Shown here piece by piece: positions 3,119-20,251 of a stretch of 64,000 nt of DNA. The position numbers and the translations under genes are program-made. The DNA is from an uncultured Solirubrobacterales bacterium (lineage in GTDB: Bacteria; Actinomycetota; Thermoleophilia; Solirubrobacterales; Solirubrobacteraceae): the NCBI GenBank assembly GCA_963701035.1, contig OY969562.1, positions 1,491,459-1,555,458 on the forward strand, given 5' to 3'. The stretch's first letter is position 1, and each line of letters starts with the position of its first letter. The notes below the pieces were generated by a model. That model made no database searches and was not told the DNA's origin. It was given only the letters and a program-made list of their open reading frames with translations.

Positions 3119-3265
3119 GAGCTAAGAACCGTCGGGCCGCTTTACTACAGCTACGCAACTGAGCTGGGTGATAACCAACACGTGCTTGCTTGCCGGCCCG
3201 TGCGTGCCTGAATTAGATTGTCGTTATTCCGCGTAAACGCCGCCACCGCTGTTGGCGGTCCCTGG
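3119..3265. repeat. Composite repeat A, copy 1
   Basis: CTTTACTxxAGCTACGCAACTxxGCTGGGTG..GCTTGCTTGCC..TTATTCCGCGTAAACG..GGTCCCTG, shared with six other loci. Confidence 0.9.
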
Positions 3266-3431
3266 ACCTCGTGGCCCGGGCCTTGGTGGCGAGATCGGGG
3301 GCCCTGTCGAGGCGGGCGGTGAGCGTTTTCGCGCCAGGTTTTGCCTTGCATGGCCCGGAACGACGGGGGTTTGGCGGGCGGACGGCATCCCGATCACGGT
3401 TCCCGTCGCAGGTGCGGCTTAGCTTTGTGGG

Positions 3432-3938
3432 ATGGCTGCTTCTAAGAGGGACAAGCGGCGTGCCAGAGCGCGCGGCACCGACGGCGCGGGCGTCTCGCCG
3501 ACCACCGTGAGATGGTCGCTCGCTTTCTACAGGACCGTCAAGGGCCTGGCGCCTGCCCGCAGCTTTCTGCTCGATTGCCCGCAACCGGTGCGGGAGATGC
3601 TCCTGGCGATCGTGGTCGCGGTACGCGACGCGCCTCCACCGAGTTTCCCGCCGAGCAGGATGTGGCATGTCATGCACGGTGAGATGAAGGGGTTCTACGA
3701 GGCACGCGACGAGCACGATGGTCAGCTGTATCGCGTGTTCTGTGTGCTCGACAGCCAAGCACCGGAGCACGGACTGGACGCCAAAGCCCTCACGCTGATC
3801 TGCGGCGGGGTCAAGCCGGTGCGCAGTCCGATGGACACGAGCGTGTACGAACAGGCACTGACCTACCGTCAGGACTATCTGGCGACACGGCGGATCGTGC
3901 TGGGAATGGGCGTTCCGAGAGACCAGCGAAAGTCTTGA
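3432..3938 (+). CDS. Type II toxin, RelE/ParE superfamily (Gp49/HigB-like)
   Basis: FYRT.KG.AP...FL start, FYEAR...LYRVFC; lies upstream of an Xre-HTH gene. Confidence 0.7.
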   Translation: MAASKRDKRRARARGTDGAGVSPTTVRWSLAFYRTVKGLAPARSFLLDCPQPVREMLLAIVVAVRDAPPPSFPPSRMWHVMHGEMKGFYEARDEHDGQLYRVFCVLDSQAPEHGLDAKALTLICGGVKPVRSPMDTSVYEQALTYRQDYLATRRIVLGMGVPRDQRKS

Positions 3939-3940
3939 GC

Positions 3941-3958
3941 AACATGAACTTATATGTT
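3941..3958 (+). promoter_or_regulatory. AT-rich inverted repeat between toxin and antitoxin (candidate antitoxin promoter/operator)
   Basis: AACATgaacttatATGTT; identical copy at 11960-11977. Confidence 0.4.
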
Positions 3959-3969
3959 ATGGTTCTCTG

Positions 3970-4341
3970 ATGATGGCTACGGACACCATGCTCACAGGTC
4001 AGGCATTCGACGAGTTCCTCGAGGGCCAGCTCGCCGACCCCTCGTTCAGAGCTGGATTTGAGAAGAAGCTCGCGAAGGTCAAGAGCATCGCCGAGGTGCT
4101 GCAGGTCATCGAGCTGGCTAGGGAGCGAGAGAACATTCCCAAGGCTGAGCTCGCCCGGCGCATGGAACGCAAGCCCGAGGCGATCTCACGGCTCCTGCGC
4201 GGCGAGGGCGCCAACCCGACGCTCGAGACCCTGATCGACCTGGCCGATGCGATCGGGCTCGAGCTCGACATCCGCATCAAGCGCCAGCCAGCCAAACGCA
4301 ACGGCAAATACTCCCCGCTGAAGGTTCACTCCACCGTCTGA
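3970..4341 (+). CDS. Xre/HTH_3 antitoxin (HigA-like)
   Basis: IPKAELARRMERKPEAISRLLRGEGANPTLETLIDLA HTH. Confidence 0.85.
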   Translation: MMATDTMLTGQAFDEFLEGQLADPSFRAGFEKKLAKVKSIAEVLQVIELARERENIPKAELARRMERKPEAISRLLRGEGANPTLETLIDLADAIGLELDIRIKRQPAKRNGKYSPLKVHSTV

Positions 4342-4391
4342 GCGGCCGCCAAAGCTCGTGGTCGGCCGACCCTGGTCGGAGAACGCGCCCC

Positions 4392-4420
4392 TGACGCGGG
4401 GCAGGACGCCCCGCGCCCAC
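4392..4420. repeat. Hairpin repeat B, copy 1
   Basis: TGAC-GCGGGGC-AGGAC-GCCCCGC-GCCCAC. Confidence 0.9.
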
Positions 4421-4490
4421 GACCTTGGGATACCCAACCACACGCGAGGATGCGGCCCAAGACACATCCCTAAAAAAGACACCCCATAGA

Positions 4491-5084
4491 ATCACCGGTG
4501 GCGAGAAAAACGTTTCTGAAGGCTTCACGGACTCGATCGGCGGCGGCTACGAGAACAAGGCCTCAAAGCTGCAGAGCTCGGTCAGCGGTGGGGCGCACAA
4601 CGTCGCATCGAACAACTCGGCCTCGGTCAGCGGCGGCCTCGAAAACGAAGCCGCCGGTTTTGAATCCTCCGTCAGTGGCGGCTCCAAGAACAAGGCCACG
4701 GGCGCACAGTCCTCGGTCGGTGGGGGTACCGGCAACGAAGCTATCGAACAGCTCTCGTCGATCGTCGGTGGGCTCTTCGACAAAACCGAAGGTGCGTTCT
4801 CCGCGGTCCTCGGCGGCGACGGGGACATCGCCAAAGGCGAAACGGCGGTGCTCGTCGGCGGCTTCGAAAACCGAGCGCCGACTCGGTATGGCGCGGTCGT
4901 GGGTGGCGATTCGAACAAGGCCGGCGGTGAATACAGCTCCGTATTCGGGGGTCTCAGTAATGAAGCCATCGGCGAGTTCTCCTGGGTGGGTGGAGGAGAG
5001 GCCAACAAAGCCAAAGGCAACAGCTCCTCGATCCTCGGCCTAAACACCAAGGAAGCAAGCGGCGGAGGCGAAGTTTTGTACTAG
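4491..5084 (+). pseudogene. Cassette S1: start-less 3' part of a Gly-rich beta-roll repeat surface protein
   Basis: About 12 repeats of 15 aa (SSVSGGxxNxAxxxx); no signal peptide or RBS. Confidence 0.75.
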
Positions 5085-5085
5085 G

Positions 5086-5280
5086 GGGTGGCGGGCTGGG
5101 TGGCTGTTAGCTACCCGGCCCGGTTAGGGATGAGCTAGGAACAGTCGGCGCCGCTTTACTCGAGCTACGCAACTCGGCTGGGTGGTTACCGGAGCGTTCT
5201 TGCTTGCCAGCCCGTGCGTGGTTGAATTGGGTTGTTGTTATTCCGCGTAAACGCTGCGGGCGCTGTTGGTGGTCCCTGGA
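5086..5280. repeat. Composite repeat A, copy 2 (with 5' GTGG hairpin)
   Basis: GTGG-CGGGCTGGGTGGCT-GTT-AGCTACCCGGCCCG hairpin followed by the A core. Confidence 0.9.
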
Positions 5281-5454
5281 CGGGTCGATTCGTCGGGGTT
5301 AGGGCAGACCTGCGAAAACTTGTGGCTCGGTTGCAGGGGTTTTTGCAGCGAGGAGGGCTCGATCTCGTCTGCCGTCCCAGAGCGTGAGTAGCTTGCTCGG
5401 CATGAGATTGACTTGTATTGATGAGCCCCACCCACCCCAGAGCCCCACCCGCCC

Positions 5455-6114
5455 GTGAGCCCGAGCCATGGCGCACCCTTCCGGGGATTCCACGACGACG
5501 AGGAATCCCCCTTCTTCTGCGCGGCCGGACGCACCCCGGAGCAGACCTGGGACATCAGTGTCAACCGGTTTGCGGACATCCTCGAAACGCTCGAGGCCCT
5601 CGCGGCCACCGGGCCGATCGAGATGTCCCCCGGGCTGCTCTGTTCCTGGCACCGCGAGATCTTCGGTGAGCTGTTCCCCGAGAACGCGGGACGGCTGCGC
5701 GGCTTCCGAGACGGTCAAGCCCAACACGTCTACTTCGGCGTGCACAACCGCGGCTACCGCGGAACGACGCCGCGCGAACTTCGCCGGCGGCTGGAGAAGA
5801 TCTGCACCGAGTTCAACACCACCGCCGCCGAGATCCGCGCATCCGAGGCCCCCGAGCGCTACGACGCCGTTTACGCCGCGACGCGGCTGTACGCGAAGGT
5901 CCTGCGCGCCCATCCCTTCGTCGACGGCAATCTCAGAGGCACGACCGTGGCGCTGAACGCCGGCCTGGTCACGCTCGGGCTCGACATAGTCGCCTTCAAG
6001 GACCTCGGCCAGCACGACGAGCTGCTCGGCATCGCGTTCGTCGGCCGCAACGACCCCTACAGCCCGCTCGCCGAACACATCACCGAGCTCTTGGCCGACA
6101 CCCAATCCGCTTGA
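5455..6114 (+). CDS. Fic/Doc family protein
   Basis: HPFVDGNLRG Fic-like motif; WHREIFG...AGRLR. Confidence 0.85.
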   Translation: MSPSHGAPFRGFHDDEESPFFCAAGRTPEQTWDISVNRFADILETLEALAATGPIEMSPGLLCSWHREIFGELFPENAGRLRGFRDGQAQHVYFGVHNRGYRGTTPRELRRRLEKICTEFNTTAAEIRASEAPERYDAVYAATRLYAKVLRAHPFVDGNLRGTTVALNAGLVTLGLDIVAFKDLGQHDELLGIAFVGRNDPYSPLAEHITELLADTQSA

Positions 6115-6135
6115 CCAACGTCCTATCCTTGAACC

Positions 6136-6369
6136 ATGGCCAAAAACACCAACAACGGCGCTCTGAACAACAACGGCGCTCCCAAACGCGTCCACGCCGT
6201 GATCGACGGCAAGCGCGTCCCACTCGACCGCACAGCAGCCCTCTACATCGCCCAACAGACACATCTGCTCGCCCTAGGCGATCCCAAACGGGCGGCAGAG
6301 ATGGTGGCCGAAGCCGAGCGCGCCGGGAACAACGGCACCAACGCCAGCAGCGCCGGCACCGTCGCCTGA
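6136..6369 (+). CDS. Small hypothetical protein, possible Fic partner
   Basis: ATG-started 77-aa ORF 21 nt after the Fic stop, ending just before repeat B2. Confidence 0.5.
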   Translation: MAKNTNNGALNNNGAPKRVHAVIDGKRVPLDRTAALYIAQQTHLLALGDPKRAAEMVAEAERAGNNGTNASSAGTVA

Positions 6370-6390
6370 CCCAGTCAGCACCCCACCCTC

Positions 6391-6419
6391 TGACGCGGGG
6401 CAGGACGCCCCGCGCCCAC
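6391..6419. repeat. Hairpin repeat B, copy 2
   Basis: Identical 29-mer to B1. Confidence 0.9.
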
Positions 6420-6491
6420 CAGCCTTTGGGGTTCGTGGTGAGCTGCGTGGATGCGACCCAAACACGTCCATACAAAAAAACACCACATATA

Positions 6492-7085
6492 ATCACCGGT
6501 GGTGAGAAAAACCTTACCGAAGGTGTCACGGACTCGATCAGCGGCGGCTACGAGAACAAGGCCTCCAAGCTGCAGAGCTCGGTCAGCGGTGGGGCGCACA
6601 ACGTCGCATCGAACAACTCGGCCTCGGTCAGCGGGGGCCTCGAAAACGAAGCCGCGGGGTATGAATCCTCCATCAGTGGGGGCTCCAAGAACAAGGCCAC
6701 GGGCGCACAGTCCTCGGTCGGTGGGGGTACCGGCAACGAAGCTATCGAACAGCTCTCGTCGATCGTCGGTGGGCTCTTCGACAAGACCGAAGGCGCGTTC
6801 TCCGCGGTCCTCGGCGGCGACGGCGACATCGCCAAAGGCGAAACGACGGCGATCGTCGGCGGCTTCGAAAACCGAGCGCCGACTCGGTATGGCGCGGTCG
6901 TTGGTGGCGATTCAAACAAGGCCGGCGGTGAATACAGCTCCGTATTCGGGGGTCTCAGCAACGAAGCCATCGGCGAGTTCTCCTGGGTGGGTGGAGGAGA
7001 GGCCAACAAAGCCAAAGGCAACAGCTCCTCGATCCTCGGCCTAAACACCAAGGAAGCAAGCGGCGGAGGCGAAGTTTTGTACTAG
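6492..7085 (+). pseudogene. Cassette S2 (near-identical to S1)
   Basis: Same length as S1 with a few substitutions (e.g. AAGFE/AAGYE, ETAVLV/ETTAIV). Confidence 0.75.
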
Positions 7086-7086
7086 G

Positions 7087-7167
7087 GGGTGGCGGGCTGG
7101 GTGGCTGTTAGCTACCCGGCCCGGCTAGGGACGAGCTGGGAACAGTCGGCGCCTCTTTACTCAAGCT
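7087..7167. repeat. Composite repeat A, copy 3, left part (split by IS110; resumes 8524-8630)
   Basis: ...TACTCAAGCT|IS|ACGCAACTCGG... reconstructs the intact A core. Confidence 0.9.
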
Positions 7168-7182
7168 GTGTAGTTTTGGGTG

Positions 7183-7432
7183 TGCCTGTCGGGCTCGATG
7201 AGTGTGGTGGGCTCCGGTGTCTTCGTAGCGAGCCCGTAGGGCGAGCGGAGAAGACGCCGGGTGGTGGCGTCCGACGCCCCCGCGAGGGTGCTGGCGGCGG
7301 CGGGATGACTCGTACTCCAGCTGGCCCGTACTGGTGCCTTTGCGTAGATCCGTCTCCCGCCGCCACCGCACCGGATGCCGCCGTGACTTCATAGAAGCCT
7401 GACCTAGCTCGACACAGCTCTGTCCGACGGCC
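7183..7432 (+). ncRNA. Predicted IS110 bridge RNA, copy 1
   Basis: Stem-enclosed loops carry target guides (TACTCCAGCT 7313-22; TTGCGTAG 7340-47) and donor guides (ATAGAAGC 7391-98; ACACAG 7412-17); RNA ends approximate. Confidence 0.75.
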
Positions 7433-7467
7433 TCCACATCACCAACCAGACGATGAGGAGAGACACG

Positions 7468-8478
7468 ATGATCGCAGTTGGAGTGGACACCCACAAGCAC
7501 GAGCACCTCGCCAGAGCGCTCGACCATCTCGGACAGCTGCTGGGCGGGGTGACCGTCGACGCGAGCCTCGCCGGCTACACCCAGTTGATGCAGTGGCTCA
7601 GAACGCTCGAGGGAAATGTTGTGGTCGGGATCGAGGGCGCCGGCAGCTACGGCGCCGGCCTCTGCGAGTACCTCCTCGCCGAAGGAATTACTGTCGTGGA
7701 GGTCGAGCGTCCCCGCCGCCAGGACCGCCGACGAGGAAAGTCCGATGAGATCGACGCGCTCCTGGCCGCGAAGAAGGTTCTCGCCAACGACGGGCTCTCC
7801 ACGCCCCGCGTCGGTGGCACACGCCAAGCCCTGGCGGCGTTGCTGATCGCGCAGCGCACCTGCAAGGGCGAGCGCACAAGGCTGCTCAACCAGATCCAAG
7901 CGATGAACACCACCGCACCCCTCGCGCTGCGCGAGCGAATCGGCGAGGGCAACGGCCGCAACCTCGCCGATCGGCTGGTGAAGATGCGTACTCGCAGCGA
8001 CCGGCCCGCGAGCGAGCAGCTGATTTTCACCGTCATGCGTGACCTCGCTCGACGAGCGCAAGAGCTCGCCGCTCAAGCCAGTGCCTACGAGCACGAGCTC
8101 ACCGTCCTGATCAGTTCCCTCGATGCAACACTCCTGCAGGAGCAGGGCGTCGGCCCGATCTCCGCAGCCAAGCTCTTGGTCTGCGACCCCAAACGGCTGA
8201 AGAGCGAGGCGGCGTTCGCGCGCTGCAACGGCACCGCTCCCAAGCCCGCCAGCTCCGGGCAAACAATCCGCTACCGACTCTCCCGCGGCGGTGACCGACA
8301 AGCCAACAACGCACTCCACACAATCGCCCTGCACCGCGCCCGCCGCGACACCGAAACCCGCGCCTACCTCGACCGCCGCATCAGCGAGGGAAAGACCAAA
8401 CGCGAGGCCATGCGCGCCCTCAAGCGACACCTCTCCCGCCACCTCTACAAACAACTCATCACGATCCCGCTGACCTAA
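7468..8478 (+). CDS. IS110 family recombinase/transposase
   Basis: GVDTHK, GIEGAGSYG, KSDEIDA (DEDD RuvC-like); PASSG..RLSRGGDRQAN (C-terminal transposase domain); AGGAG RBS. Confidence 0.95.
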   Translation: MIAVGVDTHKHEHLARALDHLGQLLGGVTVDASLAGYTQLMQWLRTLEGNVVVGIEGAGSYGAGLCEYLLAEGITVVEVERPRRQDRRRGKSDEIDALLAAKKVLANDGLSTPRVGGTRQALAALLIAQRTCKGERTRLLNQIQAMNTTAPLALRERIGEGNGRNLADRLVKMRTRSDRPASEQLIFTVMRDLARRAQELAAQASAYEHELTVLISSLDATLLQEQGVGPISAAKLLVCDPKRLKSEAAFARCNGTAPKPASSGQTIRYRLSRGGDRQANNALHTIALHRARRDTETRAYLDRRISEGKTKREAMRALKRHLSRHLYKQLITIPLT

Positions 8479-8887
8479 CAAAAAGATCCCCTTAAAGATC
8501 CCCTTGACACAATAGAAGCGTCTACGCAACTCGGCTGGGTGGTTACCGGAGCGTGCTTGCTTGCCAGCCGTTGCGTGCCTGAATTTGGTTGTTGTTATTC
8601 CGCGTAAACGTTTTGACCGCTGTTGGCGCATGATGCGCTCAGGGCTTGCTGGCAAGTAGCGCCTCGACGGAACACTGGCTATCGAGCCAAGTCTCTGCGT
8701 CGGGGTCGATCCATCCAGTAGCGATCGTGTGATCAAGTGCGTCCGGGCGCAGGTGGGCAGATAGCAAGTACCCGACAGCGGTCCCCACCAGTCCGCGGTC
8801 GATCCCGGGTACCTGTGGCACTGCGCAGGGCTCCTTGGTACTGCCGCCGCGCAGCTCGCGGCCGGGGCTGACGGTAGGCTCGATGGT

Positions 8888-10057
8888 GTGGAGGACAAAC
8901 CCAGCGCGAACCTACCCGAGAGGGGAGATGCCGGCTTGCCGGATGCGAGCTATGCCGAGGTGCTCGCGGACATAAAGACGCGGGTTGATGCGGCTCGTGT
9001 GCGGGCGTTGCGCGCGGCTAACGCGGAGTTGATGGGGGTCTACTGGCACATCGGACGGCACATCGCCGAGCAGGAGGATGCCGCGCCGGTCAAACGTGGC
9101 CGTAGCGCTCCGAAGATCATCGCGCGTCTCTCTGCGGACCTCCGCGCCGCGTACCCGGACACCACGGGATTCTCGCCGCGAAACCTCCGCTACATGCGGG
9201 ACCTGTCCCGCGCGTGGACTGAGGAGGAAATGTTGCAACACGGTGTTGCAACATTTCCCTGGGGCCACATCGTTGCTCTGCTGGGCATCCGTGACCCCGG
9301 GATCCGAGCCTGGTACGCCGAGCGCGCCGGCGAATGGACGCGGCCCGTGCTTCAGCACCATATCGCCAACGACCTGCATCTCTCCCAGGGCGCGGCGCCC
9401 AGCAACTTCGAGCGCGCTCTGCCCCCCGGTGACGCCGAAGCCGCGCAGGCACTGACCCGCGATCCGTTGATCGTGGACTTCATCCGGGGCACACCGGGAC
9501 GCGAGCGCGATCTCGAGCTCGCCCTGCTCGCCGACATCGAGCGCTTCATGACCGCACTCGGCAAGGGCTTCTCCTTCTACGGGCGCCAGCTCCCACTCAC
9601 GGTCGGCGACCGCGACTTCGCCACCGACCTGGTCTTCTACCACCACCCCCAGCGTCGGTTCGTGGTGATCGAGCTGAAGATCGGCGAGTTCGACCCCGAG
9701 CACGCCGGCAAGCTCAACTTCTACGTCAATGCCGTCGACGAGCAACTCGCCGCCCCCGAGGACACGCCCACCATCGGGATCCTCCTCTGCGCCACTCGCG
9801 ATGAGGCAGTCACGGAGATGACCCTCCGCGGCATCTCGAGCCCAATCGCCGTTGCACGATGGAAGACAGGCTCGGAGATGACCATCACAGAAGAGCCCAC
9901 CGTCTCACCAGGAATGCAAGCCGAGCTGGCAGAGATGCGCGACGTAGAGGTCGAGCTGACCGCCTTCGCCACCCGTCAGCTGGCCGCGATCGAAGAGACC
10001 ACACCCGACCCCGGCCAAGACATCACCGGCGATCCCGCGGACCCGTCTGGCGCATAG
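8888..10057 (+). CDS. YhcG/DUF1016 family PD-(D/E)XK nuclease, full length
   Basis: N-terminal YWHIG..GFSPRNLRYMR..PWGH; C-terminal DLVFYH..FVVIELKIGEF..GKLNFY..IGILLC. Confidence 0.9.
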   Translation: MEDKPSANLPERGDAGLPDASYAEVLADIKTRVDAARVRALRAANAELMGVYWHIGRHIAEQEDAAPVKRGRSAPKIIARLSADLRAAYPDTTGFSPRNLRYMRDLSRAWTEEEMLQHGVATFPWGHIVALLGIRDPGIRAWYAERAGEWTRPVLQHHIANDLHLSQGAAPSNFERALPPGDAEAAQALTRDPLIVDFIRGTPGRERDLELALLADIERFMTALGKGFSFYGRQLPLTVGDRDFATDLVFYHHPQRRFVVIELKIGEFDPEHAGKLNFYVNAVDEQLAAPEDTPTIGILLCATRDEAVTEMTLRGISSPIAVARWKTGSEMTITEEPTVSPGMQAELAEMRDVEVELTAFATRQLAAIEETTPDPGQDITGDPADPSGA

Positions 10058-10267
10058 CCCGTCCTCGACCGCTCGCACTGACGCTGCGGAAGTCTGAACT
10101 GGGCTACGACGTCGAGAAATCGTTGAACCGTGTTCGAAGCTGCGTGTGCACATAGATCTCGGCGACGCTCGATCGGACACCTTTCAAGTCATCGTCGAAC
10201 GTTTGGGGCGACGGCCTGAGTACAGGTAGGGTCGGGTGAGTCGAAGTCGGGTATCAGCTGTTCGCTT

Positions 10268-10296
10268 TGACGCGGGGCAGGACGCCCCGCGCCCAC
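10268..10296. repeat. Hairpin repeat B, copy 3
   Basis: Identical 29-mer. Confidence 0.9.
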
Positions 10297-10367
10297 CAGC
10301 CTTGGGGGTCCCAGCGAGCTGCGAGGATGCGACCCAAACACATCCATACAAAAAAACACCCCATAGA

Positions 10368-10922
10368 ATCACCGGTGGCGAGAAAAACCTCGCCGAAGGC
10401 GTCACCGACTCGATCGGCGGCGGCTACGAGAACAAGGACTCCAAGCTCCAGAGCTCGGTCAGCGGTGGGGCGCACAACATCGCCTCGAACAACTCGGCCT
10501 CGGTCAGCGGCGGTCTCGAAAACGAAGCTTCAGGGTTTGAATCCTCGGTGAGTGGCGGCAATAAAGGCGAAGCGACTGGGACGTGGGACTCGATCAGCGG
10601 CGGCTTTGAAAACAAAGCCAGCGGGACCGAAGCGGCCAGCGTCAGCGGCGGCCTGCAGAACACCGCCGGCGGCAGCTTTCAGAGCTGGGTCGGTGGGGGC
10701 TACAGAAACGACGCTACGGGCATACAGTCCTCGGTGAGTGGTGGTGACAAAAATGCCGCGAGCAGCCAGTACTCCTCGGTCAGCGGCGGCTCTGAAAACA
10801 GAGCCGAAGGCGAAAGCTCTTCGGTCAGCGGCGGCAAAGAAAACAAGGCCGCGAAGAACTTCTCCGCGATCCTCGGGGGGAAACTCAAGGAAACCACGAC
10901 TGAATTCGAAGCCCTGCTCTAG
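10368..10922 (+). pseudogene. Cassette S3 (5' repeats like S1, different 3' repeats and terminus)
   Basis: ITGGEKN..first 4 repeats shared with S1, then diverges to SAILGGKLKETTTEFEALL. Confidence 0.75.
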
Positions 10923-10944
10923 CCGGTAGTCCACTGAAGCGTCG

Positions 10945-11957: not shown

Positions 11958-11988
11958 GCAACATGAACTTATATGTTATGGTTCTCGG

Positions 11989-12360: not shown

Positions 12361-12411
12361 GCGGCCGCCAAAGTTCGTGGTCGGCCGACCCTGGTCGGAG
12401 AACACACCCAT

Positions 12412-12440
12412 TGACGCGGGGCAGGACGCCCCGCGCCCAC
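12412..12440. repeat. Hairpin repeat B, copy 4
   Basis: Identical 29-mer. Confidence 0.9.
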
Positions 12441-12510
12441 GACCTTGGGATACCCAACCACACGCGAGGATGCGGCCCAAGACACATCCCTAAAAAAGAC
12501 ACCCCATAGA

Positions 12511-12580
12511 ATCACCGGTGGCGAGAAAAACGTTGCCGAAGGTGTCACCGGCTCGATCAGTGGCGGTTTTGAAAACAAAG
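12511..12580 (+). pseudogene. Cassette S4, truncated after ~23 codons
   Basis: ITGGEKNVAEGVTGSISGGFENK runs directly into the repeat A hairpin. Confidence 0.7.
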
Positions 12581-12631
12581 GTGGGCCGGGCTGGGTGGCT
12601 GTTAGCTACCCGGCCCGGTTAGGGACGAGCT
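12581..12631. repeat. Composite repeat A, copy 5, left part (split by IS110; resumes 13976-14235 with tandem duplication)
   Basis: ...AGGGACGAGCT|IS|AGGAACAGTCGG... Confidence 0.9.
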
Positions 12632-12646
12632 GTGTAGTTTTGGGTG

Positions 12647-12896
12647 TGCCTGCCGGGCTCGGTGAGTGTGGTGGGTGCCGGTGTCTTCGTAGCGAGCCCG
12701 TAGGGCGAGCGGAGAAGACGCCGGGTGGTGGCGTCCGCCGCCCCCGCGAGGGTGCCGGTGGCGACGGGATGACCCGGGGACGAGTCGGCCCGAGTTGGTG
12801 CCTTTGCGTAGACCTGTCTCCCGCCGCCACCGCACCGGATGCCGCCGTGACTTCATAGAAGCCTGACTTTGCTTGACACAGCTCTGTCCGACGGCC
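12647..12896 (+). ncRNA. Predicted IS110 bridge RNA, copy 2
   Basis: Target guides GGGACGAG 12777-84 and TTGCGTAG 12804-11; donor guides ATAGAAGC 12855-62 and ACACAG 12876-81; ends approximate. Confidence 0.75.
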
Positions 12897-12928
12897 TCCA
12901 CATCACCAACCAGACGATGAGGAGACAA

Positions 12929-13942
12929 ATGATGATCGCAGTTGGAGTGGACACCCACAAGCACGAGCACCTCGCCAGAGCCCTCGACCACCTCGGACAG
13001 GCCCTGGGGGGTCTGACTATCAACGCGAGCCTGGCCGGCTACATGAAGCTCACCCAATGGCTCAGAACGCTCGAGGGAGAAGTTGTCGTTGGGATCGAGG
13101 GCGCCGGCAGCTACGGCGCCGGACTTTGCGAGTTTCTCCTCGCCGAGGGGATCACCGTGGTGGAGGTCGAGCGTCCCCGCCGCCAGGACCGCCGAAGGGG
13201 GAAGTCCGACGAGATCGACGCGTTGATGGCCGCGAAGAAGGTGCTCGCCGACGACGGGCTCTCCACACCCCGAGCCGGCGGCACACGCCAAGCACTCGCA
13301 GCCTTGCTGATCGCGCAGCGCACCTGCAAGGGCGAGCGCACACGGCTCCTCAACCAGATCCAAGCACTGAACACCACCGCACCCCTCGCGCTGCGCGAAA
13401 GGGTCGGCGAGGGCAACGGCCGCGACCTCGCCCAACGACTCATCAAGATGCGCACCCGCAACGACCGGCCCGCAAGCGAGCACCTGATCTTCACCGTTAT
13501 GCGTGACCTCTCCCGCCGAGCGCAAGAGCTCGCCGCCCAAGCCAGGACCTACGAGCACGAGCTCACCATCCTGATCAGCTCCCTGGACCCCACACTCCTG
13601 CAGGAAGACGGAGTCGGCCCGATCTCCGCAGCCAAGCTCCTGGTCTGTGACCCCAAACGCCTCAAGAGCGAGGCAGCGTTCGCGCGCTGCAACGGAACCG
13701 CCCCCAAGCCCGCCAGCAGCGGACAAACAATCCGCTACCGCCTCTCCCGCGGCGGCGACCGCCAAGCCAACAACGCGATCCACACCATCGCCCTGCACCG
13801 AGCCCGCCGCGACACCCAAACCCGCGCCTACCTCGACCGACGCACCAGCGAAGGAAAGACCAAACGCGAGGCCATGCGCGCACTCAAGCGACACCTCTCC
13901 CGCCACCTCTACAAACAACTCATCAACATCCCCCTCACCTGA
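12929..13942 (+). CDS. IS110 family recombinase/transposase, copy 2
   Basis: Same motifs as copy 1 with scattered substitutions. Confidence 0.95.
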   Translation: MMIAVGVDTHKHEHLARALDHLGQALGGLTINASLAGYMKLTQWLRTLEGEVVVGIEGAGSYGAGLCEFLLAEGITVVEVERPRRQDRRRGKSDEIDALMAAKKVLADDGLSTPRAGGTRQALAALLIAQRTCKGERTRLLNQIQALNTTAPLALRERVGEGNGRDLAQRLIKMRTRNDRPASEHLIFTVMRDLSRRAQELAAQARTYEHELTILISSLDPTLLQEDGVGPISAAKLLVCDPKRLKSEAAFARCNGTAPKPASSGQTIRYRLSRGGDRQANNAIHTIALHRARRDTQTRAYLDRRTSEGKTKREAMRALKRHLSRHLYKQLINIPLT

Positions 13943-14418
13943 AAAAAAGATGCCCTTGACACAATAGAAGCGTCTAGGAACAGTCGGCGCCGCTTTACTC
14001 GAGCTACGCAACTCGGCTGGGTGGTTACCGGAGCGTGCTTGCTTGGGGATGAGCTAAGACAACCAGCCACTCTTTACTCAAGCTACGCAACTCGGCTGGG
14101 TGGTTACCGGAGCGTGCTTGCTTGCCAGCCGTTGCGTGCCTGAATTTGGTTGTTGTTATTCCGCGTAAACGTTTTGACCGCTGTTGCCGGTCCCTGATGC
14201 GTTTTGATCGCTGCCGGTGGTCCCTGATGGACCAGCGCGCCGGCGCGGCGCGCACGTGATCGATCGCCTCCAACCCACAGCTCGAGGATCGCGCGGCGAT
14301 CGAGGTCTTCCTCGAGGGTTCGTTTGATCAGGTCAGACGCGCTGACGCCGGCGGGTCCGGCGGGCCGCTCCCCTTGCCCACCCCTGATGGCCGGATCCCG
14401 TCCGGAGCCAATGCGAAC

Positions 14419-15255
14419 ATGTGTTCGATGACTGGTCCTCCACCCATACGCCGCAGCGACGCGCTGCCGGCCGACTACCCGCAGTTCCTGGCCGAGATCA
14501 AGGCCCGGATCGCGGGCGCGCGCACCCGTGCAGTACTCGCGGTCAACAGCGAGCTGATCCGGCTCTACTGGGAGATCGGGCACGAGATCCTCGAGCGCGA
14601 GCAGCGCGAGGGATGGGGCGCCAAGGTCATCAACCGCCTAGCGGAGGATCTCCGGCGCGAGTTCCCCGACATGACGGGGCTCTCGCTGCGGAACCTTCGC
14701 TACATGCGAGCGTTTGCCCGAGCGTGGCCCGCCGAGAGCCCGTCCTCAATTGTGCAACAGCCTGTTGCACAATTGCCCTGGGGGCACAACGTCACGCTGC
14801 TCGACAAGCTCGACGACTCCGCAGGACGGCTTTGGTACGCCGGTCAAGCCGTCGAGAACGGGTGGTCTCGCAACGTCCTGCAGGCCCAGATCGCGAGCGA
14901 TCTCCGTGGTCGCCAGGGCAGCGCGCTAACAAGCTTCGACCACGCGCTGCCGGAGCCGGACTCGGAGCTCGTTCGCGACGCGATCAAGGACCCCTACAAC
15001 TTCGAGTTCCTCGGCCTGGCTGGGCGGGCGAAGGAGCGCGACCTCGAGCGGGCCCTGCTTCGAGGCATCGACAGCCCGGTGGCGATTGCGCGCTACACCA
15101 CGAGCGAGGTCACGCTGACGCAGACACCACCGCCGGAGATGCAGCCCGCGCTCCCGGACCTTCCCGCGCTGGCAAGCGAGCTATCCGACATCGTCGAGGC
15201 AGCCAACGCTGCGCACGACGATGGGGCGACGGAGGACGAGACGGGAAACAGTTAG
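14419..15255 (+). CDS. YhcG/DUF1016 protein lacking the nuclease core
   Basis: Intact N-terminal domain; DLERALL is joined directly to RGIDSP. Confidence 0.75.
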   Translation: MCSMTGPPPIRRSDALPADYPQFLAEIKARIAGARTRAVLAVNSELIRLYWEIGHEILEREQREGWGAKVINRLAEDLRREFPDMTGLSLRNLRYMRAFARAWPAESPSSIVQQPVAQLPWGHNVTLLDKLDDSAGRLWYAGQAVENGWSRNVLQAQIASDLRGRQGSALTSFDHALPEPDSELVRDAIKDPYNFEFLGLAGRAKERDLERALLRGIDSPVAIARYTTSEVTLTQTPPPEMQPALPDLPALASELSDIVEAANAAHDDGATEDETGNS

Positions 15256-15268
15256 CACCCCCACCCCC

Positions 15269-15290
15269 TGACGCGGGGCAGGGACGCGCC
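15269..15290. repeat. Hairpin repeat B, partial copy 5
   Basis: TGACGCGGGGCAGG preceded by the AGCACCCCCACCCC leader seen at other B copies. Confidence 0.7.
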
Positions 15291-15342: not shown

Positions 15343-16758
15343 TCATGTCGGTGTCTTGGAGCGGGACGCCTCTTCTGTCCGCGAAAGCAAGCGCACGCCA
15401 AGGTCGCCATGTTTCTGGCGTGGAGGGGGTGTGTGGGGTTGGAGTGTGATGCGTCCGCCGCGTGCGGGTACGATGAATACGTTGCGGTGCGCGACTCGCT
15501 CTGCTCGCTGGTGGGAGGGTTCGAGGCGGGCGTGGCGCAGGATTGTCCTGAGCACGATTCGGGCCTCGGAGAGGGAGAACGCGGCGCCGATGCATCGTCT
15601 GGGTCCGCCGCCGAAGGGGATCCAGGTGTAGGTGCCGGCGCGCGTGTCAAGGAAGCGCTCGGGGCGGAAGGCGAGCGGGTCTGGGTAGAGCTCGGGACGG
15701 CGGTGCACGAGCGTTATGTAGGGGACGACCATCGTGCCGCTCGGGATCGTCAGCCCGGGTAGCTCGAACTGCTCGGTGGCGAGTCGTGCGGTGAGCGGGA
15801 AAGCTGGGCGCAATCGCATCGCCTCCTTGATGACCGCGTCGAGGTACTCATCGTCTCCGTCGAGCGCGGCGGCTTGCAGGCGTGTGAGCGCGTCGGGGTA
15901 GCGGCTGACGCGCTCGAATATCCACGTCAGGGTCGAAGCGGTCGTGTCGTGGCCACCGAGCAGCAGGGTGCGCATCGCGTCGCAGATCTCCTCGTCGCTC
16001 ATCAGGCGGTCTTGGCTGTCGGGTGTGCGCAGGAACATTCCGAGCACGTCCTGGCCGTCGAGTTGACCGCTGCTGCGGCGGTGGGCGACCTCTTCCAGCA
16101 CGATCGCGTCGACCGCGTCGATCGCGCGGCGGACTCGTGGGAACGGTCTGTCCCACCCGTTCTGGCGGCTGGTCGCGATTATCGTCTGCAGGAAGAACCG
16201 CCGTGAGTGGCCCTCGGCAAGCAGCGCGAGCGTCGCTGAGCGCAACCGGTTGACGCGCGCGGGGTCGGTGACCCCGAACACGGTGGCCATGATCACCTCG
16301 AGGCTGATCGCTTCCATGTGCGGCTGGGAGGGAGTGGGGTGCCCGTAGGGCCAGCGTGCGAGAACCTCTTCGGTCTTGCGCTGCATCGTCTCGTGGTAGC
16401 CGGCAAGCGCGTCGCCGTGGAACGGGGGCAGCTGCGTGCGCCGCCTGCGCATGTGCTCGGCGCCGTCGATGTTCGTGAGTCCCGTCGGGCCGAGGAAGAG
16501 ATGGTGCGCGGACGCCTTCGCCAGCGCCGCTCCAAGTGCAAGCACGCCGGTGTCGGCTGTGAAGATGCGCTTGATGTCCTCGGGATCGGTCAGGCACAGC
16601 CACGGCCCCGTCGCCGGCATCGGCACGAGGAAACGGTCGCCGAGGCGCTGGCAGTGGCGCGCGAACTGCTCCGGGGCCAGCCAGTACTGGGCGGCATTGA
16701 CAACCGCGGGGCGTCGCAGTCGAGGCAAGTCGGTAAGTGTCTGGTCCATGAGCCACAT
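15343..16758 (-). CDS. Cytochrome P450
   Basis: GGHDTT (I helix), EAMR (ExxR), FGGGPRRCIG heme-thiolate motif. Confidence 0.95.
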   Translation of the reverse strand: MWLMDQTLTDLPRLRRPAVVNAAQYWLAPEQFARHCQRLGDRFLVPMPATGPWLCLTDPEDIKRIFTADTGVLALGAALAKASAHHLFLGPTGLTNIDGAEHMRRRRTQLPPFHGDALAGYHETMQRKTEEVLARWPYGHPTPSQPHMEAISLEVIMATVFGVTDPARVNRLRSATLALLAEGHSRRFFLQTIIATSRQNGWDRPFPRVRRAIDAVDAIVLEEVAHRRSSGQLDGQDVLGMFLRTPDSQDRLMSDEEICDAMRTLLLGGHDTTASTLTWIFERVSRYPDALTRLQAAALDGDDEYLDAVIKEAMRLRPAFPLTARLATEQFELPGLTIPSGTMVVPYITLVHRRPELYPDPLAFRPERFLDTRAGTYTWIPFGGGPRRCIGAAFSLSEARIVLRTILRHARLEPSHQRAERVAHRNVFIVPARGGRITLQPHTPPPRQKHGDLGVRLLSRTEEASRSKTPT

Positions 16759-16766
16759 CCTCTCTA

Positions 16767-16791: not shown

Positions 16792-16800
16792 ATAGTACCC

Positions 16801-17424
16801 ATGGTGCCGATAGCCGAACTCCTTGACGTGACTCCTGTCGTGGGCGAGGACGTGCTGTTTGACCGGGTTGCCGCGGCGGCGCTCGAAGAGTTCGCCGAGC
16901 ACGGCATCCGTCGCACCTCGATGGAAGACGTCGCGCGTCGCGCCGGTGTCTCACGAATGACCGTTTTCCGCCGGTTCGCGAGCAAGCAACGCCTCGTCGA
17001 GATCGTCATCGCACGCGAGGTCAATCGCGGAATGCAAGAGCTCGACCTCCTCTGGGAAGGCGCGGAAACACTCGAGGACCGACTCGTCGCAGGGTTCGAG
17101 TTCGCCGGGCGCTACGTCCGCGGGCACCCACTATTCGACCGGCTCCTGCGCAGTGAACCCGAGGTCCTGCTACCGCCGCTCACGCTCGACGGCGGACCCG
17201 TGCTCGAGCTCTACCGATCACTCATCGCACATCGACTCCAGGCCGAAGTCAACGCCGGACGCGCCACGACATCAGACATCGACGGTGTCGCTGAGGTGAT
17301 CGCACGCCTCGCGATCTCACTACTACTCACCCGCGACGGGACCATCACACTCGAGGACCCAAACTCCGTCCGGCGCCTAGTCAACCTCACAGTACTCCCC
17401 ATGCTCCAACCACAACAGGACTAG
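16801..17424 (+). CDS. TetR/AcrR family regulator
   Basis: TSMEDVARRAGVSRMTVFRRFASK HTH. Confidence 0.92.
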   Translation: MVPIAELLDVTPVVGEDVLFDRVAAAALEEFAEHGIRRTSMEDVARRAGVSRMTVFRRFASKQRLVEIVIAREVNRGMQELDLLWEGAETLEDRLVAGFEFAGRYVRGHPLFDRLLRSEPEVLLPPLTLDGGPVLELYRSLIAHRLQAEVNAGRATTSDIDGVAEVIARLAISLLLTRDGTITLEDPNSVRRLVNLTVLPMLQPQQD

Positions 17425-17654
17425 CCGCCGATCCGCCTAACCCACGGCGCGATGCCACTCAGACGAAGCGCACCCTCTCGCTTTGTGTGTGATCCGCGCG
17501 TCTCAAGGGGCACCCAGCTCACTCCTGCTCCGGACGACAAACAAGCGTCTTGGCCACCCGCATGAGCACTGGTCGCAGTGCTGTCCGTGTGAGGGCAGCA
17601 CGCGGCTTGGCGTCACTCTGATATCAGGCCCTTCCCGGTACGCACACCACCCTT

Positions 17655-17684
17655 TGACGCGGGGCATGGAGGCCCCGCGCCCAC
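17655..17684. repeat. Hairpin repeat B, copy 6 (loop variant)
   Basis: TGAC-GCGGGGC-ATGGAG-GCCCCGC-GCCCAC. Confidence 0.85.
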
Positions 17685-17746
17685 TCCCATCGGAAACGCC
17701 AACACCACGCGTGGATGCGCCCCAAAAAGACACCCAATTTCATTCA

Positions 17747-18307
17747 AGCAGCGGCGGCGTTTTGAACATTGCGAGCGCTCACGGAAGCTCGATCGCCGGT
17801 GGCTTCAGGAACACCGCGAGCGCCAACGAGTCCGCGATCGCCGGTGGCTGCTCGAACGTCGCGGGCGCCACCGCCCCCACGATCAGCGAATGCACCGAAA
17901 ACGAAGGTTACTTCCCATCGATCCTCGGCGGCGTCGGCAACCAGGCCAGCGGGACGAACGCCACCGTCAGCGGCGGCACCGGCCACACGGCGAGCACAGT
18001 CGACGGCGTCGCCGGCGCGTTGAGCAGCCTCTCGATCGTTCGCACCGAAAAGGAAGTCGGGGCAGGCAACAGCGCCCAAACGTATGCCAACTGCCCGACC
18101 GGCGAGATCGCAACCGGTGGTGGAGTCGGCGCGGCACAGGGCGGCAACAGCGCCGACAACCTGTGGCAGACCGGTCCCGTGAACGCGGCGAACGGCCTCT
18201 TCTCCAACACCACGATGGGGACGCTTCCGGTGAGCTGGTACGGAAGCTACCTCAACAACAGCGGCAAATCGGAGACCGCCTACACCTGGGCCCTCTGCAG
18301 CCCCTGA
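17747..18307 (+). pseudogene. Cassette S6: Gly repeats plus Cys-bounded C-terminal domain
   Basis: SxGGxxN repeats, then ANCPTGEIATGGG...WALCSP; no start or signal peptide. Confidence 0.65.
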
Positions 18308-18399
18308 TCGATCCGCAGCACCTGACGCGCAATCGCTGAGGCGCAGCACCTGATGCTCGGCACCCCCCGGGGCCTGAAGGCCCCGGGGTGCAGTCAGCG

Positions 18400-18545
18400 C
18401 CTTTTACTTCAGCTACGCAACTCGGCTGGGTGGTTACCGGAGCGTGCTTGCTTGCCGGCCCGCGCGTGCCTGAATTTGGTTGTTGTTATTCCGCGTAAAC
18501 GTTTTTGCCGCTGTTGGCGGTCCCTGGTGGACCAGCGCGCCGGCA
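18400..18545. repeat. Composite repeat A, copy 6
   Basis: CTTTTACTTCAGCTACGCAACTCGG...TTATTCCGCGTAAACG...GGTCCCTG. Confidence 0.9.
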
Positions 18546-18719
18546 CGGTGCGGACGTGGTTGATCGGCTCCAACCCGCTGCTCGAGGGATCGCGCGGCGA
18601 TCAAGGTCTTCCTCGAGGGTTCGTTTGATCAGGTCAGACGCGCTGACGCCGGCGGGTCCGGCGGGCCGCTCCCCTTGCCCACCCCTGATGGCCGGATCCC
18701 GTCCGGAGCCAATGCGAAC

Positions 18720-19559
18720 ATGTGTTCGATGCCTGGTCTTTCCCCCATACGCCGCAGCTACGCGCTGCCGGCGGACTACCCGCAGTTCCTGGCCGAGATC
18801 AAGGCCCGGATCGGGGCTGCCCGGACGCGTGCCATGCTCGCGGTCAACGGCGAGCTGATCAGGCTCTACTGGGAGATCGGGCATGAGATCCTCGAGCGCG
18901 AGCAGCGCGAGGGGTGGGGTGCCAGGGTCATCAATCGCTTGGCGGCAGACCTTCGGCGGGAGTTTCCGGGCATCACAGGCTTCTCGCGGTCGAATCTCAA
19001 GTACATGCGCGCGTTTGCTGAGGCTTGGCCGGCAGAGGAGGGCGATGACTCAATTGGCCAACAGCCTGTTGGCCAATTGCCCTGGGGGCAGAACATTGCG
19101 CTGCTGACGAAGCTCAAAGACCGCGAAGCCCGCCTCTGGTACGCCGCCAAGGCTGTCGAGTACGGCTGGTCCCGCAATGTTCTGCAGGCTCAGATCGCGA
19201 CCGATCTCCGGGGGCGTCAGGGGGGCGCGCTGACGAGCTTCGACCATGCGCTGCCGGAGTCGGACTCCGAGCTGGTTCGCGACGCGATCAAGGACCCGTA
19301 CAACTTCGAGTTCCTCGGCCTGGCTGGGCGGGCGAAGGAGCGTGAGCTCGAGCAGGCGCTGCTTCGAGGCATCGACAGCCCGGTGGCGATTGCGCGCTAC
19401 ACGACAGGCGAGGTCACGCTGACGCAGACACCACCGCCGGAGATGCAGCCGGCGCTCCCGGACCTTCCCGCGCTGGCAAGCGAGCTATCCGACATCGTCG
19501 AGACAGCCCACACTGCGTACGACGACAAGGCAACGGAGGACGAGCCGGGAATCAGTTAG
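18720..19559 (+). CDS. YhcG/DUF1016 protein lacking the nuclease core, copy 2
   Basis: Same ALL|RGIDSP junction; diverged middle region. Confidence 0.75.
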   Translation: MCSMPGLSPIRRSYALPADYPQFLAEIKARIGAARTRAMLAVNGELIRLYWEIGHEILEREQREGWGARVINRLAADLRREFPGITGFSRSNLKYMRAFAEAWPAEEGDDSIGQQPVGQLPWGQNIALLTKLKDREARLWYAAKAVEYGWSRNVLQAQIATDLRGRQGGALTSFDHALPESDSELVRDAIKDPYNFEFLGLAGRAKERELEQALLRGIDSPVAIARYTTGEVTLTQTPPPEMQPALPDLPALASELSDIVETAHTAYDDKATEDEPGIS

Positions 19560-19571
19560 CACCCCACCCTT

Positions 19572-19600
19572 TGACGCGGGGCAGGACGCCCCGCGCCCAC
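19572..19600. repeat. Hairpin repeat B, copy 7
   Basis: Identical 29-mer, 12 nt after the DUF1016 stop. Confidence 0.9.
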
Positions 19601-19656
19601 CAGCCTTAGGGGTTTCAGTGAGCTGCGTGGATGCGACCCCAGACATACCCCTATTT

Positions 19657-20013
19657 ATCTCCGGTGGCTATTACAACGTCACGGGTGCAGAGAATGTCCG
19701 ATTGACCGACTATGAACACGCACATGATGAAGAAAAACCAGAACTGACCAGTGAACTGACCGGCCTGTACAGTTCTATAACCGGAGGCGCTTTTGATTTC
19801 GCTCTTGGGACGGCGTCTTCCGTCAGTGGCGGGGAGAGCTCGGCCAGTCAGGGGGTCGTTTCCTCGGTCACCGGAGGCTTTGAAAACAGCACAGACTCCG
19901 AAGGCTCCTCGATCGACGGTGGCTCCAACAACCGAACGCAGACGAGGAGCTTTGGAGCTGTCGGCGGCGGCCACGGCTTGGTCGAGGAAGTTGAAAATGG
20001 GTTCGGGAGCTAG
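19657..20013 (+). pseudogene. Cassette S7 (short, divergent Gly repeats)
   Basis: ISGGYYN..SSITGG..SSVSGG..SSVTGGFEN..GAVGGG. Confidence 0.65.
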
Positions 20014-20200
20014 GTGGCGGGGCGGGGTACGACCGGAGTTGCTTAGGGATGAGCTGGGAACAGCCGGCTCCGCTTTACTCAAGCTACGCAACTCGGCTGG
20101 GTGGTTACCGCAGCGTGCTTGCTTGCCGGCCGTTGCGTGCCGTCAACCCGCAGTTGTTATTCCGCGTAAACGTTTTGGGCGTTGTTGGTGGTCCCTGGGG
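20012..20200. repeat. Composite repeat A, copy 7
   Basis: GGGATGAGCTGGGAACAG..CTTTACTCAAGCTACGCAAC..TTATTCCGCGTAAACG. Confidence 0.9.
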
Positions 20201-20251
20201 CGGGCAGGCTCGGGGGCTGGTGGCGTCCTGGTTCGGAGAACGCGCCCATCA

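Follow-up and report, generated by a model that had tools for sequence, protein, structure and literature searches.

Tandem arrays of 5'-truncated gene ends, defence-type cargo and two repeat families in an uncultured Solirubrobacterales bacterium, with a model for their accretion by recombination

Our analysis concerns a 64,000-nucleotide (nt) stretch of DNA from an uncultured Solirubrobacterales bacterium (assembly GCA_963701035.1, contig OY969562.1), referred to here as the window, which spans positions 1491459-1555458 of a genome assembled as one 2.998-Mb contig. Between window positions 3131 and 20199 lie six to seven modules in a single orientation, each built in the order repeat A, cargo gene or genes, repeat B and a cassette termed S, the 5'-truncated but 3'-complete end of a gene for a putative surface protein. 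We interpret the cassettes as relics of functional alleles that diverged as working genes of other lineages. As an evenly balanced judgement, we propose that the arrays grow in the manner of Rhs and contact-dependent inhibition (CDI) orphans, by Campbell-type homologous and occasional illegitimate recombination, without a dedicated cassette enzyme.

The module order had been claimed in an initial annotation, and repeat searches with exact seeds and iterative nhmmer recover the same array, at coordinates that differ by a few to about 50 bases at most. Repeat A was located by iterative nhmmer with E values of 1e-6 to 1e-41 in the 3.0-Mb genome, repeat B by nhmmer with E values of 1e-10 to 1e-22, and a partial B copy (15249-15290) by blastn; an Rfam scan of window positions 1-24000 (E<=1) returned no match to A or B. 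An S reading frame without a start codon begins 5-40 nt past every B, is made of 15-residue SxxGGxxNxA repeats and ends in a stop codon. After S1, S2 and S4 a GC-rich hairpin precedes the next A. In three modules B follows closely on the cargo stop, as the initial annotation had noticed, at a measured distance of 10-50 nt. That annotation had also raised the possibility of misassembly, against which several contigs of other assemblies speak. Contig L025 (ENA ERZ25039493) is collinear with the array over 20 kb at 99.3-100% identity, minus one IS110 element; L032 (ENA ERZ25039553), from another sample, shares A-TA-B-S1-A-Fic-B-S2 (TA, toxin-antitoxin) at 98.6%; and two JGI contigs hold the orders TA-B-S-A (L034) and B-S-A (L047). 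Because independent assemblies repeat the module order, we consider the array genuine and not a misassembly. Its features are as follows, with lengths of proteins in amino acids (aa).

3131-3266, plus strand: repeat A copy 1, array start (nhmmer E=2.8e-37); sharp 3' edge ...GGCGGTCCCTGG, then cargo.
3432-4341, plus strand: cargo 1, a TA-like pair (Pfam) of a 168-aa weakly Gp49/HigB-like protein (3432-3938) and a 123-aa HTH_3 protein (3970-4341); a copy with 96% identity lies at 11451-12360.
4391-4471, plus strand: repeat B copy 1, with 8-bp GC hairpin and 3' box GCGAGGATGCGGCCCAA (nhmmer E=3.9e-15).
4473-5122, plus strand: S1 cassette, no start, stop at 5082-5084, with a terminator-like hairpin at about 5093-5122; 95.6% identical to S2, with a ratio of nonsynonymous to synonymous divergence (dN/dS) of 0.18.
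5086-5282, plus strand: repeat A copy 2, core from 5138 and 5' extension from 5086 (E=6.4e-41).
5455-6369, plus strand: cargo 2, a Fic/DOC protein (5455-6114; Pfam PF02661) and a 77-aa partner (6136-6369); the Fic module has a 98.8% duplicate at genome 1466180-1467586.
6388-6472, plus strand: repeat B copy 2 (nhmmer E=1.7e-19).
6474-7123, plus strand: S2 cassette and terminator-like hairpin.
7087-8627, plus strand: repeat A copy 3, split by IS110 element 1 into a 5' half (7087-7167) and a 3' half (from 8519).
7168-8521, plus strand: IS110 element 1, inserted at AAG[CT]ACGCAAC, transposase at 7453-8478 (Pfam DEDD_Tnp_IS110, junctions read).
8888-10057, plus strand: cargo 3, a full-length DUF1016/YhcG PD-(D/E)XK nuclease (Pfam PF17761 and PF06250).
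10265-10348, plus strand: repeat B copy 3 (nhmmer E=4.5e-22).
10350-10922, plus strand: S3 cassette, 65% nt identity to S1 and S2.
10979-11284, plus strand: repeat A copy 4, partial heads at 10979 and 11037 and a full copy at 11162-11284 (nhmmer).
11451-12360, plus strand: cargo 4, second copy of the HigB-like and HTH pair.
12410-12491, plus strand: repeat B copy 4 (nhmmer).
12493-12578, plus strand: S4 cassette, internally deleted.
12580-12631, plus strand: 5' part of A, cut off by IS110 element 2.
12632-13973, plus strand: IS110 element 2, inserted at GAG[CT]AGGAAC, transposase at 12869-13942; empty site in L025.
13977-14045 and 14059-14198, plus strand: a partial and then a full A (HMM matches).
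14374-15290, plus strand: cargo 5a, a DUF1016 gene without nuclease core and the partial B (15249-15290) (Pfam, blastn).
15343-16758, minus strand: cargo 5b, cytochrome P450 (open reading frame; Pfam label from the L025 gene table).
16801-17424, plus strand: cargo 5b, TetR regulator (open reading frame; Pfam label from the L025 gene table).
17652-17728, plus strand: repeat B copy 5 (nhmmer).
17732-18307, plus strand: S5 cassette with a different, non-repeat C-terminal domain.
18391-18528, plus strand: repeat A copy 6 (nhmmer).
18675-19559, plus strand: cargo 6, second core-deleted DUF1016 gene, 87% nt identity to the copy at 14374.
19569-19649, plus strand: repeat B copy 6 (nhmmer).
19650-20013, plus strand: S6 cassette, a further C-terminal variant.
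20057-20199, plus strand: repeat A copy 7 (nhmmer).

Past A copy 7 come a second A-tail-like 14-mer and a B-head remnant, and then, on the minus strand, AbiEii and NA37-like genes in a degraded state. At this distal array end (window 20143-20962, minus strand) the AbiEii-like and NA37-like frames overlap and look degraded.

The window array is one arm of a hypervariable region of about 165 kb (genome 1.345-1.511 Mb), with an exopolysaccharide (EPS)/glycosyltransferase cluster between its two arms. Full-length head genes, two for S and one for a Wzz/BY-kinase (BYK), sit at the inner ends of the arms, upstream of the window.

1425724-1423862, minus strand: S head gene, 620 aa, signal peptide, A directly after.
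1465299-1466144, plus strand: S head gene, 281 aa, signal peptide, A directly after.
1442769-1444448: BYK head gene of the EPS cluster, 559 aa, Wzz and ParA/CbiA-type kinase domains.

Head genes with a signal peptide had thus been rightly predicted; none stands at the start of the window array itself, the heads lying about 26-70 kb upstream. Both S head proteins lack matches to Pfam families. In a search of PDB sequences the S repeats match the head of the Moraxella adhesin UspA1 (PDB 3pr7, E=7.9e-15), so that S is probably a secreted UspA1-head-like beta-roll protein and the label 'surface protein' appears reasonable. Behind the BYK head runs a 15-kb trail made up of six B-fragment units (1442769-1459767, about 32-49 kb upstream of the window) with HTH, PIN, DUF1016, Kiwa-like KwaB with a membrane partner and ORF6N as cargo, and with a 515-aa reading frame that we take, from its N-terminus, to be a putative Dyp-type peroxidase. 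Two further kinase fragments lie within the S arm, at 1473242 and 1475386. Across the arrays the cargo comprises KwaB, Abi_2, AbiEii, Fic, HigB-like/HTH, PIN, DUF4258, STAND NTPase and DUF1016, the last being the commonest; in the window it consists of two HigB/Gp49-like and HTH pairs, Fic with its 77-aa partner, DUF1016 (one intact, two core-deleted), P450 and TetR. The two core-deleted copies (14374-15255 and 18675-19559) lack the same nuclease core of about 314 nt. In L032 (8166-10233) a single DUF1016 gene keeps these nucleotides, its 5' part matching the first window copy and its 3' part the second, and the extra 314 nt or so match a full-length DUF1016 gene at genome 1452375-1453621. The cumulative GC skew reverses locally over the array region (1.35-1.50 Mb), which fits foreign or rearranged DNA.

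The truncated cassettes follow the same grammar behind two unrelated genes. Eight BYK fragments downstream of the head start at aa 250, 255, 305, 312, 314, 435, 444 and 491, and all eight reach the C-terminus (aa 556-559). The S cassettes, too, are complete at the 3' end, where at least four C-terminal types occur, and fragment lengths range from about 70 to 310 codons. The initial description of the S pieces as start-less 3' cassettes is therefore borne out, and the kinase gene extends it. Compared with the head and with one another, the BYK fragments show dN/dS of 0.13-0.23 at a synonymous divergence (dS) of 0.35-0.63 and zero internal stops; the S cassettes give dN/dS values of 0.18-0.48. 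Such purifying selection cannot act on a beheaded gene, and for this reason we interpret the cassettes as relics of functional foreign alleles whose divergence must have arisen in the working genes of other lineages. Some cassettes are degraded: one has a premature stop and, compared with the head gene, an indel, and others have internal deletions. The window S cassettes reach a best nt identity of 70-72% with the head genes and have no 5' block in common with them. At least five further species of the genus (G078, G099, G123, G034 and G091) have kinase-fragment trails of the same kind. A relative with an S array was sought among GTDB representatives; the only match there, an S homologue with 42% identity (L016) in a Solirubrobacterales genome, is a single S gene without A or B, and places the host near that order.

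Comparison of strains places the extra DNA within a gene. In contig L026 the distance from the kinase stop to TauE, with cys genes beyond, is 1.27 kb and holds a single B-fragment unit, against 15.4 kb in the present genome. The distal block of the latter (i-a, gene X, B, ii-b, TauE) is collinear over 9.8 kb with the intact gene and flank of L026, and starts only at gene nt 912, with B and cargo preceding it. Because the collinear block is cut at this position, the additional DNA lies inside the ancestral kinase gene, and gave the resident 5' part a new 3' end. This agrees with the original proposal that an old C-terminus is displaced while a new one and cargo are imported. The two strains are 99% identical in some array segments versus 92% in the adjacent flank, a pattern suggestive of recent exchange between lineages. 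Absent from L026, too, is a 10.6-kb block of the S arm (genome 1469874-1480464) with a STAND/NACHT NTPase, AbiEii and an AbiEi-like gene, an N6/N4 methyltransferase and DUF1016. Between flanks shared with the present genome, L032 carries other cargo, namely AAA_14/DUF4143, another IS110 and a DUF1016 gene with the core segment. Where the strains diverge, the breakpoints are located in the interior of S and in the interior or at the margin of A and DUF1016 copies.

The joints themselves are variable. B meets kinase fragments at BYK nt 748, about 764, 912, about 941 and 1331, with 5-40 nt of filler, and in L028 (100-260) a CGCG(T)GG microhomology marks the joint between the B 3' box and the interior of Fic, the 5'-truncated Fic being followed by the 77-aa gene and another B. 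The initial annotation had taken the B/S border for a fixed integration junction, a view that these joints do not bear out. In genome G034 (L020:3034-5028) a 420-nt direct repeat, consisting of the kinase 3' end and B at 99% identity, flanks one reverse-oriented DUF1016/YhcG gene. A single crossover of a small circle carrying cargo and a homology arm would produce such a repeat, which we therefore read as the Campbell signature of a recent event, apparently the youngest and cleanest seen.

Repeat B is about 85-110 nt long. All 23 copies in the genome lie within 1.347-1.511 Mb; those left of 1.423 Mb are on the minus strand, those right of 1.446 Mb on the plus strand. Over 36 copies, double (compensatory) changes at four positions keep the 8-bp GC hairpin paired, and the 3' box CTGCGNGGATGCGRCCCAAA is conserved in sequence. 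B was found in 14 of the 36 genomes of the genus examined, scattered round the chromosome, and occupies ordinary intergenic sites just past stop codons, for instance the gatC-gatA interval of two genomes; in G123 and G034 the distance from the kinase stop to B is 9-22 nt, at head gene and fragments alike. From these post-stop positions, the paired hairpin and the conserved box, B looks like a terminator, a processing site or an element of repetitive extragenic palindrome (REP) type, and not like part of the S gene. Two other roles were considered and rejected: a promoter or start signal for S (the ATG in the 3' box is out of frame or stop-blocked in several copies) and a -1 frameshift site at the A7 run, which is not conserved. 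As a dispersed hairpin repeat B invites comparison with REP sequences and their associated tyrosine transposases (RAYT), but PF01797, the Y1 HUH transposase family, has zero matches in the genome.

Repeat A, about 145 nt long, has 40 copies in eight clusters genome-wide. Elsewhere in the genus it was detected in no more than two or three genomes, and 22 JGI metagenome contigs carry it; it often stands directly behind large secreted-protein genes. Its 3' edge is a nucleotide-exact border to at least 10 unrelated cargo families. Some runs of small TA-like cassettes, such as that at 642-646 kb, carry A only, with A at the run start and none past the last cassette; at the far end of such A-only cassettes no att-like core was found. 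A structured RNA or attC was rejected for A, since 33 copies fold to a consensus of -8.9 kcal/mol with zero compensatory pairs and a scan of column pairs detected no covarying helix. The genome holds four full IS110-family copies; the two in the window sit in A at AAG[CT]ACG and GAG[CT]AGG, that is, at a dinucleotide core within the repeat and in a specific orientation, and L025 provides a precise empty site for one of them. These observations point to A as an intergenic repeat behind surface-protein genes and a specific landing site of an IS110-family element. In the A heads at 5125-5170, 7126-7167 and 12615-12631 a 30-nt insert, GGAACAGTCGGCGCCGCTTTACTCGAGCTA, is present with GAGCTA duplicated on both flanks, and the two IS110 paralogues each insert at one of the two GAGCT/A copies (GAGCT|A). 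Group II introns with reverse transcriptase occur near A clusters in two genomes, the present one (8490-10500) and G007 (L014:540-3030), about 240 and 445 nt from A; as a driver they were discounted, their proximity in two cases being judged coincidental and one intron having its 5' end inside a gene fragment.

The two repeats differ in taxonomic range, and both A-only runs and B-only arrays (behind the kinase gene) exist. On this basis we regard A and B as independent families, and A-cargo-B-S as a frequent combination that is not an obligate unit. The fixed order that the initial annotation made central to its proposal thus stands as an arrangement, while A and B each occur alone elsewhere.

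No enzyme dedicated to these arrays came to light. The 10 tyrosine recombinase matches (PF00589) in the genome are all at least 200 kb from the arrays, and neither a Y1/HUH (RAYT) transposase nor a serine recombinase was found in the whole genome. In or beside the arrays there are only IS110 and one IS4/5-type transposase, and the longest contigs among the 22 A-bearing ones from metagenomes encode no recombinase besides IS110. The initial annotation had noted the absence of integrase, attC and dif, none of which our searches found in the arrays; the co-occurring recombinase or HUH enzyme that it suggested seeking was likewise not linked to them, IS110 and IS4/5-type transposases apart. A search with the E. 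coli-type dif (up to 7 mismatches), which may not be the host's, gave one weak match at 1.712 Mb and none in the arrays. A Xer/dif or terminus location was rejected, the arrays lying at neither GC-skew extreme (0.31 and 1.91 Mb).

How might such arrays grow? In the model that we favour, pieces consisting of the 3' part of a foreign allele, its post-gene repeat, cargo and B would arrive by horizontal transfer from related lineages, having probably circularised or looped out of a donor array through recombination between direct repeats. Entry would take place through a single homologous, Campbell-type crossover in shared sequence, either the gene body or one of the portable repeats, A or B. In the first case the crossover would give the resident 5' part a new 3' end with cargo behind it, and would push the old 3' end downstream, beside the closing joint of the piece (B/fragment). 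Homologous recombination among copies of S, A, B, IS110 and DUF1016 may later duplicate, delete and shuffle modules. The B 3' box would be a hotspot of illegitimate, microhomology-mediated joins, and such joins, though rare, would create new cassette borders. We favour this combination of homologous and illegitimate recombination because the joints vary, microhomology occurs, the G034 repeat has the expected form, S is interrupted by strain breakpoints and the arrays have no linked recombinase; circular intermediates, dependence on RecA and the route of transfer are inferred.

Several observations weigh against the model. All truncated cassettes of the present genome start 5-40 nt past the same B 3' box, a strict adjacency that pure homologous recombination would not require and that hints at a specific cutting or joining activity. 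Homologous crossover between alleles of 83-89% identity would be expected to be inefficient. 'Empty' A-B joints exist at genome 1476580 and 1481110 (a metagenome scan for such a joint gave zero matches), an A-tail-like 14-mer recurs ahead of one B-head variant, (a), and the 10.6-kb block is flanked by 11-nt direct repeats, CTGGAGGCTGG, next to the motif GGGGTCCCTGG. These features resemble att cores and, like the strict B adjacency and the exact A-tail border, would stay unexplained by recombination of this kind.

The main rival is a dedicated site-specific cassette system, along the lines of the initial annotation. An enzyme acting in trans would cut and join discrete units, bounded by A and B, at two sites, the A tail (...GGTCCCTGG) and the 3' box of B; candidates are Xer, a tyrosine recombinase encoded far away, or DUF1016/YhcG, the nuclease that recurs in the arrays. 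Besides the exact A-tail border for at least 10 cargo families, the 14-mer before B-head (a), the empty A-B joints and the direct repeats round the 10.6-kb insert, such a system would suit the B hairpin kept by compensatory changes, the Fic cassette, which has one right-hand boundary in two contexts (A-Fic-B and A-Fic-A), and the prominence of DUF1016, the commonest cargo and the sole cargo of the youngest event (G034). It fits poorly with B/fragment joints at many positions with filler and microhomology, with A-only cassettes that have no distal core, with an A devoid of structural covariation, with the different taxonomic ranges of A and B as independent families, with the lack of an A-linked recombinase besides IS110 in this genome and in the longest A-bearing contigs, and with strain breakpoints inside S. 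We consider such a system unlikely, with a real chance nonetheless of proving correct. In its boldest form, to which we give a similarly tentative place, A and B would be the working ends of a new integrase-less mobile cassette, with a trans-acting nuclease or recombinase (DUF1016/YhcG being the suspect) that cleaves at the A tail and at the 3' box of B. Cleavage would take along the adjacent surface gene's 3' end to serve as homing arm, and each transfer, if so, would bring a new receptor C-terminus and a new defence gene.

The S cassettes could instead form a silent library for antigenic variation, serving as donors for gene conversion as in pilE/pilS or vls, with the cargo incidental. They are promoterless, 5'-truncated and 3'-complete, with conserved flanks and variable middles or C-termini, and stop codons are kept out of them. 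Against this, the window cassettes are at most 72% identical in nt to either head and share no 5' block with it, some are degraded by an indel with a premature stop or by internal deletions, and the same arrays trail a cytoplasmic Wzz/BYK kinase domain, where antigenic variation would be senseless. We therefore give this explanation little credence.

Less probable still is purely local tandem duplication or unequal crossing-over of the 3' end, followed by decay and with no horizontal input. The region does contain segmental duplicates (A-Fic-B-S twice at 98.8%, the TA pair twice at 96%, the core-deleted DUF1016 gene twice), and the G034 repeat is 99% identical. Decay is not what the cassettes record, however: dN/dS of 0.13-0.48 at dS up to 1.3 with no stops largely refutes this account, adjacent modules hold unrelated cargo, and L026 is 99% identical in some array segments versus 92% in the flank. 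We see equally slight prospects for an integron-like array that has no integrase, of the kind termed CALIN (cluster of attC sites lacking integron-integrases), with A as attC. In favour, A holds the inverted 7-mers ACGCAAC...GTTGCGT, each half of which matches the R''/R' consensus at 6/7 positions, the cassettes are small, co-oriented and TA-rich (as in the run at 642-646 kb), and an IS110-family element is site-specific in A, as IS1111-attC elements are in attC. Yet no integrase is near, A is conserved by sequence and not by structure (-8.9 kcal/mol, no compensatory pairs), its conserved flanks reach far past the hairpin, runs start with A and end without it, and the window modules also hold B and S. 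Finally, that tandem stitching of strain variants during assembly produced the array is scarcely credible: the genome is a single-contig metagenome-assembled genome from a strain-rich sample, and L025 and L026, though both from one sample, are unlike each other, but the same junctions and module order recur in contigs of two other assemblies and in JGI contigs, and analogous arrays are present in other genomes of the genus.

What would the proposed accretion mean for the host? If the model is correct, a soil and peat lineage of Actinomycetota renews the end of a surface gene and gains an anti-phage or TA gene in one recombination event. The renewed end would be an exposed or regulatory one, likely that of a phage receptor or a capsule regulator, and the displaced ends would stay behind as a readable fossil record. 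The arrays would also offer a natural system for studying how small, integrase-less pieces of DNA accrete at gene 3' ends, and whether B-like hairpins or the widespread DUF1016 nuclease promote such accretion.

Among known systems, the orphan toxin-immunity arrays, namely the rhs orphans of Salmonella (PMC3967940) and CdiA-CT/CdiI orphans, are among the closest to what we describe. There, too, co-oriented, 5'-truncated, 3'-complete cassettes trail a full-length head; they retain a remnant of the conserved region, derive from other lineages and are interspersed with IS elements. Exchange with the head gene by homologous recombination is the accepted route in those arrays, and we liken it to the route proposed here. 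The genes differ: instead of polymorphic toxins they encode a UspA1-head-like beta-roll protein and a Wzz/BY-kinase, and no Rhs/YD or CdiA domains were found in the array head genes (S matches no Pfam family, and the other head has Wzz and kinase domains). Behind each cassette lies independent defence or TA cargo in place of a cognate immunity gene, and two non-coding repeat families, A and B, mark the module borders.

A second parallel is provided by integrative elements that enter gene 3' ends and carry a replacement end, such as e14 and phage 21 in icd, tandem islands at tRNA and tmRNA genes, and SCCmec at rlmH. In these cases as well the target stays intact, a displaced 3' fragment is left behind the element, and repeated events yield tandem arrays with the oldest fragment most distal. 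The present elements differ in having neither an integrase nor a fixed att core, in measuring only 1-6 kb and in their variable fragment length. With chromosomal integron arrays and CALINs they share small, co-oriented, TA-rich cassettes, a species-specific repeat of about 0.1 kb and its use as an IS110-family target, whereas IntI is missing, the repeat is not attC by structure, and the modules have an additional repeat and a gene fragment. The pilE/pilS loci resemble them in their promoterless, 5'-truncated surface-protein cassettes arrayed with conserved linker repeats, but here the cassettes are too diverged for efficient conversion, a kinase shows the same arrays and cargo is interleaved. 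In grammar the arrays resemble Rhs/CDI orphans and the tandem islands that restore a target gene's 3' end, yet they belong to neither family, having no polymorphic toxin or cognate immunity genes, no integrase and no fixed att core. By the features tested, they also fall outside integrons, pdif modules, REP/RAYT systems and pilS-type libraries, and a limited full-text search of the literature found no earlier description of them. To our knowledge the logic of the orphan cassette has been recognized in polymorphic toxins only; the arrays described here, which come from six or more species of a single genus, extend it to a BY-kinase and an adhesin-like protein.

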